From NCBI GenBank assembly GCA_035651555.1, contig DASRFL010000008.1, forward strand, positions 1-12,248: a stretch of DNA of 12,248 bases. Reading direction: 5' to 3'. This document shows, in pieces, positions 2,778 to 11,703 of this stretch. The position numbers and the translations under genes were made by a program. How positions within the stretch are numbered: the first letter of the stretch is position 1; each line of letters starts with the position of its first letter. Under the pieces are notes generated by a model that did not search any database, had not been told where the DNA came from, and saw nothing but the letters and a program-made list of their open reading frames with translations. Source of the stretch: Terriglobales bacterium (GTDB taxonomy: Bacteria; Acidobacteriota; Terriglobia; Terriglobales; Acidobacteriaceae).

Positions 2778-4313
2778 CTAATTTTTTAACACTCCCGCAG
2801 CTTCAGCTAGCACTTGCCAATGTCGAGGATGCGGAAGACGTTTGCCTGACCGAATACCGCTTGCATAAGGGAGTGAAACACCGATTGCAGCTGCAATTGT
2901 TGGAGCGGCAAGCTTCGCAAGCTGGGGCAAAATCCTTTCGCTATAGGTTTCCTTGTTCAGCCAAACAGGTTGTGAAGCTGCTGACCAGTTGCGTTTTGCC
3001 TCCTCGTGTTTTCGCAGGCATTCAGCGCGGGTCCTTTGCGCATCTGAACTCTGCGCTGCTACGCGTCCAACAGCCGCCGCCTTGATGAGGTTTGCCCGCG
3101 ATATCGGTATGGCACAATTAGCACAATTCCTTCGTCCGCGCACGATTGGCGTCCCGCATCCTTCACAGATGCTCTCCGGGCGGGGAGGATTCACTGCAAT
3201 CGCCGTACGAGCGACGCCCCTGGCGAGTCGTTTGTGCTCTTGCGTGAGTCGCGTGGCGTAAACAGTCCGGTAATTGGGCGTGGAAATTCCCGAAGCGAAT
3301 TTGCGCGCTACCCACTCCGCAATCGCGGCAACGGCACGTGCGCATGCAGGTGCAGTTTCAGACAAACGAACGGCGAACGATCCTATCAAGCGGCAGTTTC
3401 CATTGCGCTCTTCGAAAAACCAATCTCGCTTGAACGCCCCATGGAGAATCCAAGCAAGCAGATACGCATCTATTTTTGGACGGATGGCCTCGATTAGATC
3501 GAAGACTAGACTGTCCCTGATGGGTGAATCAACGTGCAAAACTCCGAGTCCCGGATCCATCCCTAGGGTGGTGATGGCAGCGCGCGTCGCTGACTCGCCA
3601 ACCGCGTACAGGTAATTCAAAATGGCGTTCCCTGGATTGCTAGCCAAACGTGGTGAGCCGGTCAGAGGTGATATACGGCTGCCGAACGTCCGCCAATGTT
3701 GGGGAACACGCCTAAGATCGCTCTTTGGGAAATTGATGCTTAAGTTAGCCCAAAGCGACCAGTAAAGTCGAGCGGCCTGAGATTCGAGCAAGCGGATTTC
3801 TTCGGCGCTGTTAGCCGTCCCAAGTTTTTCCCTAAACTCAATGATTATTTGTGCAGCTGCTGGGTTAAGCAACGTTTCGCGTGCGAGCTGCGCTTGACCA
3901 TTTAGCTTTTGTGCAATCAATTCGCGCGCGATCTCAAGGGCGACACCGGATTGTATTGCGAGTGCTTGGGCCCTACGCAATCGTGCATCGGATGGATACA
4001 CCGGGCCTGTGACAAAAAGTACTTTTCCGTTGCGCTCAAGTACGGAGACTGAAACGTCCTGGTCAGAGAGCCAGCGCAGCGCTGCCAGGGAGATGAACCC
4101 GTCAGCACCAATGATGACAAGTCTCTTCAAGCCGTGATTGACGCGCGGCAAGCGAAATGAACGGCGATCTATGCCGATGCCGTCCTCTAGTACCAAGTGC
4201 CCACCATCAACGTTCACTCTTATACCGTACCCGTACAGCGTGACAACACCGCCCCTTGGCACAAGTGAATTGAGGGATTGTGGCGGTTCAGATAAGTTTC
4301 TGATAGCCGTCAT
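2778..4313 (-). CDS. cas1: Cas1-family integrase (casposase-like) with C-terminal Zn-ribbon and HTH extension
   Basis: Residue numbering follows the ORF track. N-terminal beta domain: VVTLYGYGIRVNVDGGHLVLEDG...LKRLVIIGADGFISLAALRWLSDQDVSVSVLERNGKVLFV. Catalytic domain: ESQAARLYW (E205, nt 3783-3785), NAILNYLYA, and GMDPGLGVLHVDSPIRDSLVFDLIEAIRP (H288 nt 3534-3536, D300 nt 3498-3500, E303). This is the canonical Cas1 signature. CEGC...CANC lies at nt 3114-3167. The HTH-like tail IAAAIGVSLPYASGIRSGKRLPHPRHW lies at about nt 2808-2912. The preferred start is ATG 4313, with AGGAGG at 4325-4330; the ORF-track TTG at 4397 has no usable SD. Confidence 0.9.
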   Translation of the reverse strand: MTAIRNLSEPPQSLNSLVPRGGVVTLYGYGIRVNVDGGHLVLEDGIGIDRRSFRLPRVNHGLKRLVIIGADGFISLAALRWLSDQDVSVSVLERNGKVLFVTGPVYPSDARLRRAQALAIQSGVALEIARELIAQKLNGQAQLARETLLNPAAAQIIIEFREKLGTANSAEEIRLLESQAARLYWSLWANLSINFPKSDLRRVPQHWRTFGSRISPLTGSPRLASNPGNAILNYLYAVGESATRAAITTLGMDPGLGVLHVDSPIRDSLVFDLIEAIRPKIDAYLLAWILHGAFKRDWFFEERNGNCRLIGSFAVRLSETAPACARAVAAIAEWVARKFASGISTPNYRTVYATRLTQEHKRLARGVARTAIAVNPPRPESICEGCGTPIVRGRRNCANCAIPISRANLIKAAAVGRVAAQSSDAQRTRAECLRKHEEAKRNWSAASQPVWLNKETYSERILPQLAKLAAPTIAAAIGVSLPYASGIRSGKRLPHPRHWQVLAEAAGVLKN

Positions 4314-4400
4314 GGGAGCTGATACCTCCTGTGCGGTTAGGGCTTGCCATCTGCTGGTGACAGGGGCAGGCCCACTGTGGTTGAAACTTTTACCCAAACC

Positions 4401-5213
4401 TCACTTGCGCATCGCCTTTTTACGTTTGCGCTGGGGTTTCCCAAAGCGCGATTTATCAAACATTTGGTCAGGTCTTTGTGAACCTACGAGATTTATTGCG
4501 GTGCGAGTGCTTACACCAAAAAGTGCGCCCGAAAGCGCGCGAGAGAGGAACCAGATTTTCTTCAGCTGAGTGGACTTGCGATCAGACTTCGGAAACTTCG
4601 GATTTTTCTTCGCAGAAATGAATTCAGACGCGTATTGTGACAAATAGTTTGGAAGGCCGATTACATTCGATATGGGCCATGCGGGTACTCGTATTTCTTT
4701 TATGACTCCCGGTTCCACTTCGCGCGTCACGACCATAGATGCTTGGGCACAAATCTCCCGTACGCGTTCTGGTGTTTCAGCTTGCATTAATGCGTTGAAT
4801 ACTCCAGGCTCACCGGGGATCTTTAATACGGCTCTGGCTTCTTCTACCGCCTTCTCGCGCATCCACTCCCGAGTTACAAATAATGTTCCTTCTTCAATGT
4901 CGCGAAGGCGCTCTGCTTTCTGCTCTATTGGCAATCGACCAGATCTAATTTCTTCTTCGAGTATTTCGTGATGGCGTGCCTTCTGCTGTCCGTCGAGCTC
5001 AATAGGCATTTTCTCCAGCTCAGCCTCTAGGTCCGCGAACTTTTTCTTATCTAACCACCAGCGTGAGCCTCCCTCAATGAGTCTGCGGAAATCCCAATAG
5101 AACTGGTGCGCCATTGCGTACAGCGATCCGGGCTCGACTTCTCTTGGTCTGCCAGCTGGCATAATTAAAGGGCAAAATCTAGAGCGTATCGTTTGCGTAT
5201 GTGATCTACGCAT
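4401..5213 (-). CDS. Hypothetical protein (~271 aa), co-directional with and immediately upstream of cas1
   Basis: Long ORF with protein-like composition: charged helical stretches such as KKKFADLEAELEKMPIELDGQQKARHHEILEEEIRSGRLP, and a Lys/Arg-rich C-terminal tail FGKPQRKRKKAMRK. No family recognised. The start is ambiguous (ATG 5213 or 5162, or TTG 5279) and none has a good SD. Confidence 0.55.
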   Translation of the reverse strand: MRRSHTQTIRSRFCPLIMPAGRPREVEPGSLYAMAHQFYWDFRRLIEGGSRWWLDKKKFADLEAELEKMPIELDGQQKARHHEILEEEIRSGRLPIEQKAERLRDIEEGTLFVTREWMREKAVEEARAVLKIPGEPGVFNALMQAETPERVREICAQASMVVTREVEPGVIKEIRVPAWPISNVIGLPNYLSQYASEFISAKKNPKFPKSDRKSTQLKKIWFLSRALSGALFGVSTRTAINLVGSQRPDQMFDKSRFGKPQRKRKKAMRK

Positions 5214-5280
5214 AGTATACACGGGGTAATATGCACTTGCGAGAGCTGCAATGCAAGGGCAAGAAATGAGGTGTATCAAA
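5214..5280. promoter_or_regulatory. Divergent control region between the minus-strand (unknown + cas1) and plus-strand (HTH...polB) gene sets
   Basis: A 67-bp gap between divergent start codons. It is AT-rich, with TATACT/GTATAC and TAATAT (5227-5232) boxes. An adjacent inverted repeat, TGCGTA (5194-5199) N7 TACGCA (5207-5212), overlaps the 5213 ATG. Promoters are inferred from the geometry only. Confidence 0.35.
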
Positions 5281-5526
5281 ATGCGACGTGATGAAACGAT
5301 ACTCGCTGTAGGAATAGTCGAGGCCGCCCGAAGGTTGGGCCTCTCGCCGCGTACAGTCGCGACCCTTGTCGCTCAGAGAGAGTTGGGGAGCCGCAGGGTT
5401 GGTCGTCGTCGCGTCATACCCGTCTCAGCACTGGAGGATTTCTTGCGCGGTGATCACCTTACCGATGTTCGAACCAAGACTTCGGGGAATAACCCCAATT
5501 CGAAAGGAGCAACAGTATGTCGTTAA
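5281..5526 (+). CDS. Excisionase/MerR-like helix-turn-helix DNA-binding protein (HTH_17-type)
   Basis: VEAARRLGLSPRTVATLVAQRELGSRRVGRRRVIPVSALEDFL matches the excisionase-family HTH pattern (EaA..LgvS.rTv..l...GeL...rvGrr..Ip...L..fl). ATG at 5281 is preceded by GAGGTG (5267-5272). Confidence 0.8.
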   Translation: MRRDETILAVGIVEAARRLGLSPRTVATLVAQRELGSRRVGRRRVIPVSALEDFLRGDHLTDVRTKTSGNNPNSKGATVCR

Positions 5527-5861
5527 GAACGATGCTAAACAGCCGTAATACAGGCCAATCCGGGGCTCTGCTAAAAGGTTCCGACGTCCCTCACGGAGTT
5601 AAGTCAATAACCATTGAAGTAGCGGGCGTACGCGAACCACCTGAAGGGTTCAGCGCCGTCCTCATACTGGAGTTGAAGAAGCCGATCTACGGCAAGTCAG
5701 CTTGGGCCGTTAATAAAACAAACGTCAAGGCGCTCGTGCAGCTGTTCGGCGATGACGAGCACAAACTGGTGGGCAAAAAGATCAAGCTGGAAGTCATCTC
5801 TGTTCGTAATCCACAAACCGGCGAGATCGTGCCCAGCTTGGCGGTGAGCCCAAAGCAGTAA
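5517..5861 (+). CDS. Hypothetical protein, 114 aa
   Basis: ATG at 5517 with AAGGAG (5504-5509) 7 nt upstream. It overlaps the preceding stop by 10 nt, which suggests translational coupling. The composition is plausibly coding. No family recognised. Confidence 0.65.
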   Translation: MSLRTMLNSRNTGQSGALLKGSDVPHGVKSITIEVAGVREPPEGFSAVLILELKKPIYGKSAWAVNKTNVKALVQLFGDDEHKLVGKKIKLEVISVRNPQTGEIVPSLAVSPKQ

Positions 5862-5933: not shown

Positions 5934-6479
5934 ATGCCTCGAAAGAAAGCCAAGTCGAAAAGAACGCGTTCGGAAAAGACGAGGCACAAGTCTCCTCCGG
6001 CTCGGTCGAGCAACAGCTTCCGGCAAGATTCAACCGGAGCCAAGGCGTTTGCCGTGTTAGCTCGCTCCCGGCGTACTGGTGAGTCGCCTGAAGCTGTTAG
6101 TCGCCAGTTTGGGACCTATTTCGCCGTTGTTCGCCGTCATCTTCCAGGTCATTTTCGTAAGGTGCGTGGAAGGTGGGTCCCGACAAAATCTGATCGATCG
6201 CCGCGAGGCAAACAGCTCCTCACGGAAGACGGTTACGAAAGGATCGTGGTTCGCGGTTCTAAGAAAGCCGCCGAGCTTAACCGATACAACCAGGTGGTGG
6301 CTCGTTTCATTCGCGGTAAAGATAAAGATCCGTCAGCACTCGCAGAGTTCGAGCGGAAACGCATAGCAGGTCATCGTTACCTCACCGATCCAGACAAGGT
6401 TTTCAGGTTGGCCGATGCAGGAATCATCAAGACCGATGAACTCGGGTCAGATCAGGTTTCGCGCGGAGGCAGGAGGTGA
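5934..6479 (+). CDS. Hypothetical highly basic protein (~181 aa)
   Basis: ATG at 5934 with GAGGTG (5925-5930). N-terminus: MPRKKAKSKRTRSEKTRHKSPPARS. An alternative TTG at 5862 abuts the upstream stop. The gene ends in a GTGA overlap with the next ORF. Confidence 0.6.
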   Translation: MPRKKAKSKRTRSEKTRHKSPPARSSNSFRQDSTGAKAFAVLARSRRTGESPEAVSRQFGTYFAVVRRHLPGHFRKVRGRWVPTKSDRSPRGKQLLTEDGYERIVVRGSKKAAELNRYNQVVARFIRGKDKDPSALAEFERKRIAGHRYLTDPDKVFRLADAGIIKTDELGSDQVSRGGRR

Positions 6480-6838
6480 AGCCTGCTCGACGAAAGAACA
6501 AGCGACTTGAAAGGTATTTGGAACGCGGAATCAAACCGCCTGACCTTCAATCGTTGGTCCTGGACGACGACCCGCTGTCCGGCCTGCAAGAAGATCACGT
6601 TGCAAGCCGTCAGCACGATTCCAAGCTCGTTGCTCCGGTCACACCGAAAGCTCATCAGCGGCTTGAGAGAAATCGAAATGCCGCTGGTGTCAGCAGGAAA
6701 TATGAGAAGAACCTGGTCAAGCGAACCATACAACGCCTTAGGTCGAGCGCCGTCTTTGACGAGCTCCAAGCCGAAGCAAAGTGGCGATGGGCTGAAGACC
6801 TCGAACTTAGTATCAAGAAAAACGCTGAGGAGCGCTGA
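6476..6838 (+). CDS. Hypothetical basic/charged protein, 120 aa
   Basis: GTG start in a 4-nt GTGA overlap with the upstream stop. Its TGA shares one nucleotide with the polB ATG (cTGATG at 6836-6840). The composition is helical and charged. The two other ORFs over the same DNA (6507-6887 plus, 6452-6880 minus) look like out-of-frame artefacts. There is no internal Met, so the start is uncertain. Confidence 0.5.
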   Translation: MKPARRKNKRLERYLERGIKPPDLQSLVLDDDPLSGLQEDHVASRQHDSKLVAPVTPKAHQRLERNRNAAGVSRKYEKNLVKRTIQRLRSSAVFDELQAEAKWRWAEDLELSIKKNAEER

Positions 6839-9753
6839 TGAATCCGCAAGTAAAAGATCTTGCTCTTCGTGTTCACACAAAGGTTGAAGGCGCTAAGCGC
6901 GCCAAATCACGATCACGTAAGCTATCCGGCCCGCAATCGCTGAAATGGGCTAAACACGCGCTGGTAATCGATTGTGAAACGACCACGGAAGAACTCGGCC
7001 AAAAATTAAACTTCGGCTTCTATCGGAAGTGCAAAGAAATCAATAACGAATTCAAAACGATAGAAGAAGGCATCATCTTTGCCGACGATCTCGTGAAACG
7101 CCTGGGCCACACCGCCCTAGCGCTATTGCAACACTTCGCGCGTTCACAGCCCGACACGATTTGCGGTCGCTTTGCCAAGATGAAGATCTACTCACGGTCT
7201 AATTTCGTTAAGAAAGTGTTCTTCCCGTGGGCAATTCTGAAGAAAGCTGCAATCGTCGGCGCAAACCTGGCATTCGATCTTAGTGTTCTTTCGGTCGCCT
7301 ATCACGAGCACAAAACGGAAAACGGCTTCTCCTCTGAACTAGCGGCGCGTTACAAGCGACGCGAACACAAGCGCTATCCACGGCTACGAACCGTTCCAAA
7401 GAATTCGCGAACCGCGTTCTTCGACTTGTCGGGAGGAACGGGCCCATACAAATGTGGTCGCAAGAATCGCGGAAGATTCCTAGATGTTCTGACGTTTGCG
7501 TTCGCAATGCGAAACAAGCATCTCAAGCTGAAAACGGCTTGCGGAATAGATGGTTGGAACGTTGCTGGCAAGCTGGATCACCAACCAACAGGGAAAGTGA
7601 CGTTACAAGAAATCGAATATTGCCGGGAAGACGTTGCGGCAACGCTCCGGCTACTGAACGCACAACGCAAAGAATACGACAGCTTCCCGATTGATCTGAA
7701 ACCGGAACGCGCGCTCAGCCCCGCATCGATCGCGAAGAGCTTCCTCGAAAGTATGGGAATTCAAAAACCGGCAGAGAAATATAAATTGCCGGATTGGATT
7801 CACGGCGTCGCCATGCAAAGCTACTACGGCGGCAGAAGTGAAGTTCGTATTCGCGATCTCGAACTACCGGTGATTTTGGTCGACTATACGAGCAATTATC
7901 CAACCGCTGCAGTGCTATTGAACGTATGGAAGCTAATGATCGCTGCGAAGATTCGCATTAAAGACGTTACCGAAGAGGCGCGCAGCACCCTGGGCTTGGT
8001 AAATCGCGATCGTTTGTTGAACCCACAATTCTGGGCTACGCTCGATTTCATCGCGCTAGTTGTGCCAGATGGTCACCTTTGCCCCGTACGTACTGAATAT
8101 GACGATGTCGACGGTGAATCAACGAATATTGGCTGCAATCCGCTGTTTTCCAGGACGCCAATCTGGCTAACCGGCCCGGACCTGGCAAACGCCGTTCTCC
8201 ATGGCCATCGAATAAAGATCCTTCGGGCTATCCGGCTCGTTCCTGTGGGCATTCAAAAAGGGCTCCAGCCGGTAAGAATTGGCGATCGCGTCATCGATCC
8301 CCGACGAGATAATCCGTACACCGCTTGGGTTGAGCTAAAAGAAGTCTCGTCTGGGACAATCAAACAATTTATTAAGGTGTTGCTGAACTCGGGAGTATAT
8401 GGATTGGCCGTCGAACTGAACTTGAAGCGCTACAGCAAGAACCGACCTAAGACGATCCGCATCTGGGCGGGCGACAAAGAGCTTCCTCCCACTAAGGACA
8501 CCAAAATCGAAATTCCCGGCCAGTGGTATTTCCCCTGGATTGCGACCCTCATCACGGGTGGAGGACGTTTACTGCTAGGCATGTTGGAGAAGGAACTCGC
8601 AACACTCCAGGGTAGTTACATGATGACAGACACGGACAGCATGGCAATCATCGCGAATGAAGAAGGTGGATTTATTCCGTGCCCTGGTGGACCGCATAAA
8701 ATGTCAGATGGGAAAGACGCGGTAAAAGCGCTTTCGCGCGCGGAAGTCGAGAAAATCACCGACCGAATTCAAAAACTCTCACCGTATAGCGCAAATATCA
8801 GACTATTGAAAATTGACAAAGCAAATTTAGATCGCAATGGTAAGCCGCACCAGCTCTTTGGAATCGGCTATTCGGCGAAAAGATACTGCCTGCGCACGGA
8901 AAAAGAGATCATCAAGCCCAGCGAGCACGGCCTTGGACCTTATTTCGTTCCAGCATATAAAGATGATGAACGCTTCTGGACGCCCGACGATTGCTTGAAA
9001 GGGGACGCGTATCTTCGCTGGGTGAAAGAACTATGGGAATTCATTCTTGGAATCAGAAAAGAATTGCCGAAATGGGCTAATTACTACTCGATGCGCAAAT
9101 ACGCGGTCACCACGCCAAATATTCTTACAAAATTGCGCCGTTTGAATCGTGACGCAGCAAAACCATACTCGTTTTGTATTGGTCCGATTTCATCTTTTGG
9201 GCATGATACAAAGGTTACCCCGTACTGCGAAAACCCCGAATTGTGGAAGGATCGCGAGTACATTTCGCTGAAAACCGGTCAGACAACGCGTTTGAGCAGC
9301 ATTGAAAATGATTGCGAAGGTGAAGAGAGCTTCGTTATTGACGATGCGCCCGAAAAACTTAAGAAGGTCATCGAGGATTATTCGAAATCAATCGAGCATA
9401 AAAGCCTCGCGCCGGATGGATCGAAGTGCGCGAGCGAAACGTGCGGCTTGCTGCGTAGACGCGCAATCAGAGCGAGTGGAATATTTAACTGGATCGGAAA
9501 AGAAGTAGATCGTGGAACTTCAACTGATCCGGAATTTTATTCAAATGAGACGCTCACTAAGTACGCACAAAATGGTTATCAATTTCCCGAAGCTCTAAAT
9601 AAATTTACAAACAGCGAGCTTGCAACGCGCACGGGATTATCCGAGAAAACAATTCGCGCGGCGAGAAGAAACAAGACGCGAACTCAGGCGACAACTGCTG
9701 CGAGATTATCGTGGTGCGCGCGTATGGTGCAAGAACACAGATCACAAGTGTGA
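6838..9753 (+). CDS. polB: Family-B DNA polymerase with 3'-5' exonuclease domain (971 aa)
   Basis: Motifs read in the translation:
- ExoI: VIDCETT (D45 nt 6970-6972, E47)
- ExoII: GANLAFDL (N143 nt 7264, D147 nt 7276)
- ExoIII: YCRED (Y261 nt 7618, D265 nt 7630)
- Motif A: VDYTSNYPT (D349 nt 7882)
- Motif B: KVLLNSGVYG (K513 nt 8374)
- Motif C: MTDTDS (D598 nt 8629, D600 nt 8635)
- KxY: AKRYC (K681 nt 8878)
An HTH-like C-terminal tail, ELATRTGLSEKTIRAARRNK, lies at about nt 9610-9672. Confidence 0.92.
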   Translation: MNPQVKDLALRVHTKVEGAKRAKSRSRKLSGPQSLKWAKHALVIDCETTTEELGQKLNFGFYRKCKEINNEFKTIEEGIIFADDLVKRLGHTALALLQHFARSQPDTICGRFAKMKIYSRSNFVKKVFFPWAILKKAAIVGANLAFDLSVLSVAYHEHKTENGFSSELAARYKRREHKRYPRLRTVPKNSRTAFFDLSGGTGPYKCGRKNRGRFLDVLTFAFAMRNKHLKLKTACGIDGWNVAGKLDHQPTGKVTLQEIEYCREDVAATLRLLNAQRKEYDSFPIDLKPERALSPASIAKSFLESMGIQKPAEKYKLPDWIHGVAMQSYYGGRSEVRIRDLELPVILVDYTSNYPTAAVLLNVWKLMIAAKIRIKDVTEEARSTLGLVNRDRLLNPQFWATLDFIALVVPDGHLCPVRTEYDDVDGESTNIGCNPLFSRTPIWLTGPDLANAVLHGHRIKILRAIRLVPVGIQKGLQPVRIGDRVIDPRRDNPYTAWVELKEVSSGTIKQFIKVLLNSGVYGLAVELNLKRYSKNRPKTIRIWAGDKELPPTKDTKIEIPGQWYFPWIATLITGGGRLLLGMLEKELATLQGSYMMTDTDSMAIIANEEGGFIPCPGGPHKMSDGKDAVKALSRAEVEKITDRIQKLSPYSANIRLLKIDKANLDRNGKPHQLFGIGYSAKRYCLRTEKEIIKPSEHGLGPYFVPAYKDDERFWTPDDCLKGDAYLRWVKELWEFILGIRKELPKWANYYSMRKYAVTTPNILTKLRRLNRDAAKPYSFCIGPISSFGHDTKVTPYCENPELWKDREYISLKTGQTTRLSSIENDCEGEESFVIDDAPEKLKKVIEDYSKSIEHKSLAPDGSKCASETCGLLRRRAIRASGIFNWIGKEVDRGTSTDPEFYSNETLTKYAQNGYQFPEALNKFTNSELATRTGLSEKTIRAARRNKTRTQATTAARLSWCARMVQEHRSQV

Positions 9754-9843
9754 AGAAGGCGATTTAGCATAGTGAAGTTTAGATACCACTAGAATACAGA
9801 CCAGTAACGCGAACTATCACGAGCGAAGAAGGAAAGGACGACT

Positions 9844-10048
9844 TTGCGACAACCGGAATTAACAAGTGTGTGCACGATGCCAGAGATCAAAAACTGTATG
9901 AGCTTTGCCGTAGATCAGCAATGAGAAAGATTCAGACAAGCTGATTGCATTGGTCCAAAAGCTAACGAAACTTCTCGCTGAAGAGCAGGACGAAATCAAG
10001 GCCAAAATCAAGGCGAACGCCGGGAAACGCGTGTCGATTATTGAGTAG
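9844..10048 (+). pseudogene. Small ORF split by a +1 frame change (possible frameshifted small-protein gene or assembly error)
   Basis: GGAAAGGA (9831-9838) then TTG at 9844 (in-frame ATG at 9877) gives ...CTMPEIKNCMSFAVDQQ, then TGA (9922-9924). The +1 frame continues (9914-10048) as ISNEKDSDKLIALVQKLTKLLAEEQDEIKAKIKANAGKRVSIIE*, but it has no start codon of its own. Confidence 0.3.
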
Positions 10049-10121
10049 GCTTGCGTAAGTGGAAGGCAAAATGAAGAGGAAATCTACCTAGAATTTCCCG
10101 AGGCCCCGCAGAGGTATAGGT

Positions 10122-10150
10122 GTCTCTGTTGAGACGAAGGCATGGCCTTC
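10122..10150 (-). terminator. Two short hairpins just downstream of the LuxR-type regulator stop (weak terminator candidate)
   Basis: GTCTC (10122-10126) TGTT GAGAC (10131-10135), and GAAGGC (10136-10141) ATG GCCTTC (10145-10150). They begin 5 nt after the stop codon at 10155-10157. The stems are short and no U-tract follows. Confidence 0.25.
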
Positions 10151-10154
10151 TCAG

Positions 10155-10874
10155 TCACAGGCCAGTGGCTACATCCTCTCGACCATTCGCCGAACCTGTG
10201 AAGCGCGACACGCCTGGGAGCGGCACGTGGATGATCTCGTTTGTCACTGCGTACAGCACCAAACTGGCAAGGGAGTGAAGTTTGAGCTTACGCATGATAT
10301 TGCTGCGATGGGTTTCGGCCGTTTTTAATGAGATCCCTAAGAGACGGGCCACTTCCCTGGAACTGTTGCCCTCGCCTACGAGCTGAATGACCTCGCGCTC
10401 CCGAAGCGACAACTGGGATAGCTTGATCACGGGAGGAACAGCTTGGTCGCGCGACACGTAACCGTTAAGGATCAAATCGGACACACCAGCGCTGAACATC
10501 GACCTGCCCCCTTGAAGAGCTTCTACTGCTGTCACAAGGTCCTGAGTGGTGTCCGACTTAAAAAACCACCCCCGGACCCCGATTTCCAGACATTCGCGGA
10601 TCACTTGCTCGGAGGCCACATCGGTCACGACCAGTATTCTCAGGTTCGGATCGTGGTTCAGAATCTGTCGCGCCGCCTCCACGCCATTCAGCAGGGGCAT
10701 GCAAATATCCAAAATGACCAGGTCTGGCTTCAACTGCATGCATTTCTCGACGGCATCCCGCCCATCCGCAGACTCACCGCAGAGTTCCCAATCTGGGTGG
10801 GAGGCTAAGAGTGAGCCCAGGCCCAGGCGGAACACCGGATGATCGTCCACCACCAGAATTCGAAAGGTACTCAT
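10155..10874 (-). CDS. Two-component response regulator, NarL/FixJ (LuxR-type HTH) family
   Basis: REC domain: ILVVDDHPVFRLGL...KPDLVILDICMPLLNG. LuxR HTH: LSLREREVIQLVGEGNSSREVARLLGISLKTAETHRSNIMRKLKLHSLASLVLYAV. ATG at 10874 with GAGGT 6 nt upstream; the ORF-track TTG at 10889 is rejected. Confidence 0.9.
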   Translation of the reverse strand: MSTFRILVVDDHPVFRLGLGSLLASHPDWELCGESADGRDAVEKCMQLKPDLVILDICMPLLNGVEAARQILNHDPNLRILVVTDVASEQVIRECLEIGVRGWFFKSDTTQDLVTAVEALQGGRSMFSAGVSDLILNGYVSRDQAVPPVIKLSQLSLREREVIQLVGEGNSSREVARLLGISLKTAETHRSNIMRKLKLHSLASLVLYAVTNEIIHVPLPGVSRFTGSANGREDVATGL

Positions 10875-10928
10875 GGCAGGACCTCGCAAGCGCCATAACG
10901 AAATTTATCAAGGTGTCAGCGTGCCGTC

Positions 10929-11049: not shown

Positions 11050-11703
11050 CTACGCGACAGATTCCTGCGGAGATTTCAGAAAAGCTGCTTTCCATGCCGC
11101 CCGTTTTTCAGGCGAGTTCACGGAGCGGGAAAAATCAATGATGTAGGTGACTTCGTGAGGACAGTAGATGCAGGCAGTCTTCAGAACCTCGCCGGCTGGT
11201 TCATGATCAACCGTGAACGGGAACGATCTCAGGCATTGCGTACAGGTCAGAAGGACGAAAGGGTTACCATTCTGATCCTTACCATTTCGCGGAATCCACA
11301 CCGGAGCATTCTCTCCCTTGTGTTGGACAGGACCCGTTCGGATGAGGTCAGCAACAATCTCTAAGAGCTTCGCGGCACTTTCCTCGCCTTTAGCGTAGAA
11401 GGCGTCAGCTATGACTCCTCCAGGCACGGCGCCGGAGGTATACGCACCGCTAGCCGCCACCACCATAACGTTTGGGAACCTGCGTCTCACTACGGACAGC
11501 AACTCGAATCCCGACATTTGGGGCATATTAAGATCGGAGACCACCAAGTCCGGGAGCTTCTGTTGCATTTGCAAAAGCGCGTCAAACCCATCATTTGCGG
11601 TGGTGACCTCGTAGCCTTCCTTCTCGAGCACTCTAGAGAATGTCAAACGTACCGCCTCGTCATCTTCGACCACAAGTATGCGTGTTTTGGATTTGCTACA
11701 CAT
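11050..11703 (-). CDS. CheY-like response regulator receiver domain fused to a C-terminal CxxC...CxxC domain
   Basis: REC domain: RILVVEDDEAVRLTF...LPDLVVSDLNMPQMSGFELL. C-terminal ~80 aa: LLTCTQCLRSFPFTVDHEPAGEVLKTACIYCPHEVTYIIDF, which is Zn-ribbon-like. ATG at 11703 with GAGGTG 4 nt upstream. Confidence 0.85.
   Translation of the reverse strand: MCSKSKTRILVVEDDEAVRLTFSRVLEKEGYEVTTANDGFDALLQMQQKLPDLVVSDLNMPQMSGFELLSVVRRRFPNVMVVAASGAYTSGAVPGGVIADAFYAKGEESAAKLLEIVADLIRTGPVQHKGENAPVWIPRNGKDQNGNPFVLLTCTQCLRSFPFTVDHEPAGEVLKTACIYCPHEVTYIIDFSRSVNSPEKRAAWKAAFLKSPQESVA

Follow-up and report, generated by a model that had tools for sequence, protein, structure and literature searches.

The stretch analysed here, 12,248 nucleotides (nt) of contig DASRFL010000008.1 from assembly GCA_035651555.1 of a Terriglobales bacterium (Acidobacteriota), and referred to below as the window, carries a cas1 gene that lies apart from any CRISPR array and from other cas genes, as is the case in casposons, together with a gene for a divergent family B DNA polymerase (PolB). 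Both are found between two flanking chromosomal genes, one for an AI-2E transporter (stop codon at 2700) and one for a LuxR-type response regulator (10155–10889). From the interior of this region cas1 and an upstream open reading frame (ORF) of 292 amino acids (aa) read leftwards, and a diverging operon of overlapping genes, ending in polB, reads rightwards. We consider it probable that the Cas1 protein serves as integrase (casposase) for a compact element of ~7 kb that resembles a casposon and is bounded at most by positions 2701 and 10154. The features on which this interpretation is built are the following (pLDDT, predicted local distance difference test score; TM, template modelling score).

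2778–4313, minus strand: gene of the Cas1-family integrase, 511 aa from the ATG at 4313 (Pfam Cas_Cas1, E 8.1e-37)
3387–4232, minus strand: Cas1 core, consisting of an N-terminal beta domain and the catalytic helical domain (Pfam; AlphaFold2 pLDDT 80–95; Foldseek match to 6opm, TM(target) 0.75)
3183–3284, minus strand: linker of low confidence and poor conservation (AlphaFold2 pLDDT <50 at residues 344–377 of 511; variable alignment columns)
3114–3167, minus strand: CxxC-N10-CxxC zinc ribbon or knuckle, CEGCGTPIVRGRRNCANC (four invariant cysteines; weak matches to Pfam DZR and Zn_Ribbon_1)
2988–3122, minus strand: helical hairpin of two long helices between zinc ribbon and helix-turn-helix (AlphaFold2 helices 398–420 and 423–442, pLDDT 72–84)
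2796–2954, minus strand: C-terminal helix-turn-helix (HTH) domain of the Xre type (Pfam HTH_3 and HTH_31; AlphaFold2 pLDDT ~90; Foldseek)
6838–9753, plus strand: divergent family B DNA polymerase, 971 aa (Pfam PF03175, 27.3 bits, cutoff 25.8)
9550–9717, plus strand: C-terminal HTH of PolB, homologous to the HTH of the Cas1 tail (weak Pfam HTH_36 match at aa 905–945; hhalign)

In the six-frame ORF list the cas1 frame extends from 2778 to 4397 on the minus strand and comprises 539 aa from a TTG codon, position 4313 being Met29 of that ORF. As nearly all homologues in the family alignment begin at Met29, the Cas1 protein most likely has 511 aa (residue numbers from E205 to W527 follow the 539-aa ORF, those of the AlphaFold2 model the 511-aa protein). 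The Pfam Cas_Cas1 match covers aa 56–337 of the ORF, and the generic cas1 model of NCBIfam, TIGR00287, is matched at 107 bits (cutoff 71.7). A preliminary description of this DNA had pointed to E205, H288, D300 and E303, with the spacing H-x11-D-x2-E, as an intact Cas1 active site, and had proposed a structure prediction as a check. All four residues and their spacing are present and are invariant in 22 family members, and in a phmmer alignment E205, H288 and E303 superpose on E162, H232 and E247 of the Methanosarcina mazei casposase (6opm), which were named as its active site by Hickman et al. (PMC6977970). The AlphaFold2 model of the whole 511-aa protein has a pLDDT of 77.5, and in a Foldseek search of the PDB that casposase ranks first (E 4e-17), followed by the Cas1 protein of A. 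fulgidus. Judged by its sequence, the ORF at 2778–4313 on the minus strand encodes a Cas1-family integrase with intact catalytic residues. Among 5.8 billion proteins searched for homologues, the sole entry identical (100%) to the Cas1 protein of the window is P0001, which with 434 aa lacks the N-terminal ~77 of the 511 residues; its N-terminus appears to have been cut off by automatic annotation.

Beyond the core, Cas1 continues for ~194 aa, in agreement with the extension of about 190 aa, with a zinc ribbon and an HTH tail, that had been described for it. In the AlphaFold2 model a disordered linker leads from the core to a small zinc knuckle; two long helices come next, and a compact domain of four helices is the last part of the chain. 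The cysteines held by CEGCGTPIVRGRRNCANC (C411, C414, C425 and C428) are invariant in both family alignments, of 22 and of 30 homologues, and of 14 Cas1 members scanned with Pfam, 9 have a weak match to DZR and 5 to Zn_Ribbon_1, so that the motif probably binds a metal. The terminal domain is recognised by HTH_3 in 12 and by HTH_31 in 11 of the 14 family tails; it ends in an invariant PHPRHW motif, encoded at 2817–2834. Foldseek places the tail among HTHs of the Xre/Cro type (the N-terminal domain of AcrIIA15, Aca11, DdrO and C-proteins), with matches that are weak (E 0.3–2, TM(target) ~0.55) but consistent. The tail segment IAAAIGVSLPYASGIRSGKRLPHPRHWQVL is conserved, the C-terminal segment ...GVSLPYASGIRSGKRLPHPRHWQVL is present, and S508, Y511, A512, R516, G518, P522, H523, R525, H526 and W527 are invariant.

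It had been considered that this region might be a separate gene joined to cas1 by a frameshift or an assembly error. Such a fusion artefact is ruled out, because more than 100 homologues from independent assemblies (about 505–530 aa, 55–66% identity) share the architecture, cover ~94% of the Cas1 query and retain the four cysteines together with the invariant tail residues. A profile of the tail matches 3304 cluster representatives at E<=1e-3. The tail of ~190 aa is thus a conserved part of one protein across a large Acidobacteriota family. The tail module is also matched, with 50% identity over 76%, by P0220, a protein of 311 aa with a Resolvase domain (PF00239) from a contig of 1.4 kb, which hints either at the presence of the zinc-binding domain (ZBD)-HTH module on a serine recombinase or at a chimeric gene call.

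The polymerase was compared with 24 homologues. Its only match to a polymerase model of Pfam is PF03175, which represents the organellar/viral, protein-primed type and is also the precomputed label of most of its homologues; a model of RNA-primed-type PolBs is not matched, and a PHROG polymerase family matches at 3.8e-7. Searches of the PDB by sequence and by profile gave no usable match for PolB. The residues N143, F146 and D147, Y261 and D265, D349, S352 and Y354, Y521 and G522, D598-T599-D600 and K681-R682-Y683 are invariant in the 24 homologues, and the ExoI pair D45/E47 is nearly so (>=90%). ExoII, ExoIII, motif A (DxxSxYP), motif B (YG), motif C (DTD) and KxY (as K-R-Y) are complete, and PolB therefore looks active and proofreading, as far as its motifs can tell. 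A piPolB, the polymerase of pipolins, had to be considered as its identity and is ruled out, since piPolBs have KTRG where K-R-Y is kept here.

The link between the two enzymes extends to a shared domain. Profiles of the Cas1 tail and of the PolB tail align over 53 columns in hhalign with a probability of 92.5% (E 5e-7), and in 12 of 57 loci the Cas1 and PolB tails of the same locus are similar to each other at z>3, with values up to z 13. This highest value is reached in L050 (related loci compared with the window carry L-numbers), where the Cas1 tail ...IRLGRRRPHPRHWQLLAKLV is paired with the PolB tail ...ARTGRRRPHDRNQKLLEALV. A similar HTH on Cas1 and PolB has been described for the family 2 casposons of Archaea (Krupovic et al., PMC4046053).

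With one genome scanned for each GTDB species, 365 Cas1 relatives were found, of which the best 80, used for counts of gene context, are all from metagenome-assembled genomes of the Acidobacteriota class Terriglobia. In 73 of these 80 loci PolB is encoded within 10 kb of Cas1 (by tblastn). With few exceptions the genes have the same divergent layout, and the stop codons of the two genes are ~6–7 kb apart in most loci. It is to a PolB, and not to CRISPR, that the Cas1 of the window is linked. Clustering of the ORFs from 78 loci resulted in four core families, Cas1 (77 loci), PolB (73), orf205 (73) and orf120 (51); beyond the two genes that face outwards, no family is conserved. The tight linkage of Cas1 and PolB includes two small core ORFs, which in the window are located as follows.

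5934–6479, plus strand: core gene of the orf205 family (~175 aa), with position and strand fixed across the 73 of 78 loci that have it
6476–6838, plus strand: core gene of the orf120 family (~110 aa; a 120-aa ORF in the window), with the orf205-family gene on one side and polB on the other in 51 of 78 loci

The orf205 gene of the window has ~181 aa (it is listed with 205 aa from an upstream TTG, and the alignment places its start at Met25). Proteins of this family have a basic N-terminus, an HTH-like segment (weak matches to Pfam HTH_23/28/29 in 5–6 of 31 members) and a near-invariant tyrosine close to the C-terminus (Y195 in the ORF numbering of the window). Because the gene is located upstream of a polB of the PF03175 type, its product is a candidate accessory DNA-binding, terminal or priming protein, although this is speculative. 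The orf120 gene is immediately upstream of polB and overlaps both of its neighbours, indicative of translational coupling; the family has no match in Pfam, NCBIfam or PHROG. For the small core ORFs and the variable ORFs taken together, Pfam gave nothing beyond weak HTH matches.

In the window there is no tandem repeat or CRISPR array, no Rfam family and no tRNA; Pfam and NCBIfam show no Cas2, no other Cas protein and no HNH nuclease (the latter is also missing among the PHROG matches), and the Pfam scan shows no tyrosine recombinase.

Several properties of the related loci point to a mobile genetic element. The flanks differ in nearly every locus, several genomes among the best 80 carry two or more divergent copies, and there are decay products (L098, L099/L100, L101 and L102), among them truncated polB genes without cas1, solo tails and a cas1 gene split by an insertion sequence (IS). 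The slot upstream of cas1 is variable, with homologues of the 292-aa protein in 9–10 of 80 loci and unrelated families of 342, 182 and 307 aa elsewhere, and the neighbouring cargo is variable as well. Of the truncated polB remnants without cas1, one adjoins IS66-type genes and another a phage-integrase fragment; one solo Cas1 tail is an ORF of 204 aa, and the insertion that splits the cas1 gene is a DDE transposase. In L097, the closest full relative (PolB 78% identical), genes for an RNase T-like exonuclease, a reverse transcriptase and an ORC/Cdc6-like ATPase come after the element, and Vsr and a DNA methylase are encoded further on (13002–18578 and 21585–22928). Whether as cargo or as part of a defence island, these additional genes may have joined the locus; none of them occurs in the window.

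The ends of the element can be confined to two junction regions.

2701–2777, no strand: Cas1-side junction, with the boundary between the AI-2E stop codon (2700) and ~2830 and no terminal repeat
9725–10154, no strand: polymerase-side junction, with the boundary between ~9725 and the response-regulator gene at 10155

Similarity between elements ends at the very 3' ends of cas1 and polB and, between the window and its three closest elements, already ~28 nt before the polB stop codon. Oligonucleotides from 2701–2777 and 9754–9850 had been suggested as substrates for an integration assay, which implied terminal repeats in these stretches. This expectation is not borne out: their inverted alignment scores 15, compared with 16±2 for shuffled sequences, no inverted 8-mer links the two junction regions, and a search for exact words and repeats returned nothing.

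Three related loci provide leads on what such ends may have looked like. In L021, an element that looks intact, an inverted repeat of 140 nt with 92% identity (4941–5080 and 11446–11585) is present at both ends; one arm coincides with the final 47 codons of cas1, and the second extends from 17 to 156 nt beyond the polB stop codon. A third, solo copy of the sequence that encodes the Cas1 tail is found at 12443–12562, ~850 nt downstream of cas1, and the edges of the repeat show no obvious target-site duplication (TSD). Beyond polB, L004 carries a degenerate copy of the Cas1 tail, and in L003 the 3' ends of cas1 and polB are 72% identical over 46 nt in the same register. We regard these signals as leads and not as a rule (2 of 57 loci).

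A further pair of loci, L013 and L026, is 98.5% identical over 9 kb and diverges abruptly at 11497, after the TGG codon of the PHPRHW motif; the left break, at ~2470, is 2.5 kb beyond polB and past a gene with a deaminase domain. The idea that the element ends exactly after the HW codons was rejected, because in both loci the coding sequence of the conserved last helix continues past the break. The break itself resembles a junction formed by recombination between element lineages, situated in the nucleotide stretch of highest conservation.

By gene content (a Cas1 integrase, a PolB and no CRISPR) the locus belongs to the casposon superfamily, but this does not extend to terminal inverted repeats (TIR) and TSD, neither of which was found in the window. 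We therefore describe it as an element that works like a casposon and is a proven member of no described family. By analogy with casposases, the Cas1 core would join the 3'-OH ends of the element to host DNA. The zinc-ribbon/HTH module may supply a sequence-specific DNA binding that is missing from the core; we assign it this role of a DNA-binding arm because the M. mazei enzyme loses all integration when its HTH is deleted. Since PolB carries the same HTH, the sites recognised are most likely at or near the ends of the element itself, and the shared domain could bring integrase and replicase to the same DNA. PolB would then copy the element, possibly by protein priming, for which the products of the conserved ORFs upstream of polB would be candidates, either as terminal or as accessory proteins.

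A more specific version of this scheme is put forward with considerable doubt. It holds that the loci represent a new and abundant bacterial casposon family, which combines a protein-primed-type PolB, known from the archaeal family 1, with a ZBD-HTH casposase, known from one family 3 element, and that the termini are, or ancestrally were, inverted repeats that encode the C-terminal HTH. If terminal genes read outwards into inverted-repeat termini, integrase and polymerase would gain the same end-binding domain, and HTH-encoding repeats would explain the sharing of this domain between Cas1 and PolB both here and in family 2 casposons. The TIR of L021 over the last 47 cas1 codons, the copy in L004, the similarity in L003 and the solo tails are the leads in its support.

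A number of results weigh against a casposon-like element. A TIR is found neither in the window nor, within 700 nt or 5 kb of the ends, in ~50 loci, and there is no conserved terminal k-mer among the related loci, searches that leave room for very short terminal motifs. Flanking direct repeats, judged against controls with shuffled partners, have a longest length of 7–10 nt, which matches the control distribution, so that there is no excess of TSDs. The window itself has a 9-nt direct repeat, GAAGGCGAT, at 2719–2727 (19 nt past the AI-2E stop codon) and at 9755–9763 (2 nt past the polB stop codon); its placement would suit a TSD, but ~0.26 such repeats are expected by chance and the family does not have such a pattern. 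Copies within the same genome are only 64–74% identical, compared with a median of 60% for random pairs, and thus give no sign of recent transposition. Metagenome contigs with the AI-2E transporter provided no empty site; in the closest of them (L093, 81% nt identity) similarity ends at 2701, and the contig has neither the element nor the right flank of the window. The polymerase type is a weak call, at 27 bits to PF03175 and with no PDB match. The isolated HTH of M. mazei has no detectable DNA-binding activity (PMC6977970). Finally, a profile of the family scores the CRISPR Cas1 of A. fulgidus and the casposase equally (104.8 and 104.6 bits). The label of a casposase, as used in the preliminary description, is therefore based on gene context: it is upheld by the linkage to PolB and the lack of CRISPR, while the Cas1 sequence alone cannot decide.

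Of the alternatives, we consider it unlikely that the locus is a domesticated, immobile Cas1-PolB module that is retained by the host, for example for defence or for DNA repair or synthesis, with an HTH that acts as a regulator or targets a host site. The missing TIR and TSD in the window and in most loci would fit such a module, as would the lack of near-identical copies within a genome, the orthologous positions that are kept between related genomes (L066/L071, L008/L024 and L013/L026), the typical function of Xre-type HTHs as repressors and the defence-like neighbours in some loci, such as the reverse transcriptase, ORC/Cdc6-like ATPase and Vsr/methylase of L097. A beneficial host system would not, however, be expected to decay frequently (split cas1, solo tails, truncated polB). 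Flanks that differ in nearly every locus and two or more divergent copies per genome also speak against this reading. Moreover, the 140-nt TIR of L021 is at odds with it, and the same HTH on an integrase and a polymerase fits the recognition of ends better than regulation.

Quite unlikely, in our opinion, is a module by which a small linear replicon, similar to a plasmid or a virus and equipped with a protein-primed polymerase, becomes integrated. Such a replicon would be acquired horizontally instead of transposing within genomes; Cas1 would integrate its linear genome, and the tail would bind termini or a complex with the terminal protein. A PolB of the PF03175 type with intact KxY and DTDS motifs is in line with such a replicon, as are the conserved small ORFs upstream of polB, which is the usual place of terminal proteins (Krupovic 2014), and the co-residence of divergent lineages in one genome. 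The conserved core has no capsid or packaging genes, however, and the family has no relatives in 72,556 plasmids or 2.9 million viral contigs; furthermore, this explanation departs from a casposon-like element mainly in lifestyle and not in the role of Cas1. It is extremely improbable that the gene is an orphan cas1 of CRISPR adaptation to which a C-terminal part was fused by a frameshift or an assembly error. The core does score as a generic Cas1 with TIGR00287, and the A. fulgidus protein equals the casposase, but array, Cas2 and other cas genes are missing from the window, the linkage to PolB is fixed, and the supposed fusion is refuted by the full-length architecture and its invariant tail residues in more than 100 independent assemblies.

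A comparison of the casposon-like element with described systems finds resemblances to several of them. The bacterial casposons of family 3, to which AceAut-C1 of Candidatus Acetothermum autotrophicum belongs (Krupovic et al. 2014, PMC4046053), likewise have a bacterial host, a Cas1 unlinked to CRISPR and paired with PolB, and intergenic insertions. The preliminary description did not associate a zinc module with described casposases, yet there are precedents: a zinc-binding domain is N-terminal in NitAL212-C1 and, together with an HTH, C-terminal in AceAut-C1 (PMC4046053; review PMC9939771), and the latter arrangement has the same order as here, as far as its published description allows a comparison. 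Known family 3 elements have, however, RNA-primed-type PolBs and an HNH nuclease (PMC4779613, PMC8464041), whereas the PolB of the window is of the PF03175 type and highly divergent, and no HNH, TIR or TSD was found in the window. Family 3 PolBs are further defined by branching within those of family 2; here only PF03175 matches, a distinction that is based on Pfam models.

The family 2 casposase of M. mazei (6opm) is the best structural match and shares the aligned E/H/E residues and a C-terminal HTH, and in family 2 as in the window a similar HTH also ends PolB. The host in that case is an archaeon, however, the identity in the Foldseek alignment is ~25%, the tail has only 60–70 aa with neither zinc ribbon nor helical hairpin, and the two HTHs have no detectable sequence match (a single stretch was matched). 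In that enzyme deletion of the HTH abolishes all integration, the isolated HTH does not detectably bind DNA and the domain is invisible in the crystal (PMC6977970). Family 2 elements have TIRs of 31 bp, a TSD of 14 bp and tRNA targets; targeting of tRNAs is not apparent here, as the window has no tRNA and 45 loci have none within 10 kb.

Protein-primed PolBs are the defining trait of family 1, from Thaumarchaeota, in which Cas1 is free of additional domains (PMC4779613, PMC8464041). Elements of family 1, such as that of Candidatus Nitrosopumilus koreensis AR1 (PMC8464041), resemble the window in their PF03175 protein-primed-type PolB and in a conserved small gene just upstream of polB; they differ in their archaeal host, in a Cas1 without HTH or fused domain and in their target, the 3' end of the aEF-2 gene, whereas we find a 190-aa extension in Acidobacteriota. 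A family 5 of casposons has been proposed from hot springs (PMC9755687). Pipolins (PMC5695915) are also self-synthesizing elements integrated in bacterial genomes and have a divergent PF03175-like PolB, but their piPolBs have KTRG for KxY and an altered first aspartate in motif C, in contrast to the invariant K681-R682-Y683 and D598-T-D600, and they integrate by tyrosine integrases instead of Cas1. From the Cas1 of CRISPR adaptation the system differs by having neither Cas2 nor array in the window and no further conserved neighbours in 78 loci. The element, which is widespread among Acidobacteriota of soil, was not found in the searched literature (subscription literature not covered), which contains no paper that links casposons with Acidobacteria. 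The zinc ribbon itself is thus not new, and the family, its host range, the polymerase type and the shared tail are of more interest.

The CRISPR adaptation machinery has been proposed to descend from casposons. In the papers covered here only a handful are reported from bacteria, all assigned to family 3 and with RNA-primed-type polymerases. If the loci described here are casposons, a family with members in hundreds of genomes of Acidobacteriota species, and with metagenome proteins in the thousands, would greatly enlarge the bacterial sample, and polymerase type could no longer be assumed to follow the domain of the host. The Cas1 tail is larger and better conserved than the essential C-terminal region of the M. 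mazei enzyme, and an HTH common to integrase and polymerase suggests how both enzymes reach the ends of the element. For genome annotation, genes of this family should not be counted as CRISPR cas1 genes.

The remaining ORFs of the window are the following.

4401–5279, minus strand: the 292-aa ORF, directly upstream of cas1 and co-directional with it (no match in Pfam, NCBIfam or PHROG)
5251–5526, plus strand: small HTH_17 protein (excisionase/MerR-like), first gene of the polymerase-side operon (Pfam HTH_17, E 8e-11; PHROG excisionase/regulator, E 1e-4), found in 8 of 80 loci
5517–5861, plus strand: 114-aa ORF, without a Pfam, NCBIfam or PHROG family, found in 2 of 80 loci

Between 8750 and 10000, which covers the 3' part of polB and the intergenic region, the G+C content is 0.45–0.47, compared with 0.53–0.57 in the flanking host genes, and the AT skew is strongly positive over the polymerase operon. 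Some flanking blocks recur on opposite sides of the element: a block of two ParB/RepB-like genes and a large serine recombinase gene is found at the Cas1 end in one locus and, inverted, at the PolB end in another (L028:11638–14986 and L072:321–3780), and the same pattern is seen in L062/L066 and L011/L017. The elements may be inserted into, or adjoin, other DNA that is mobile or invertible.

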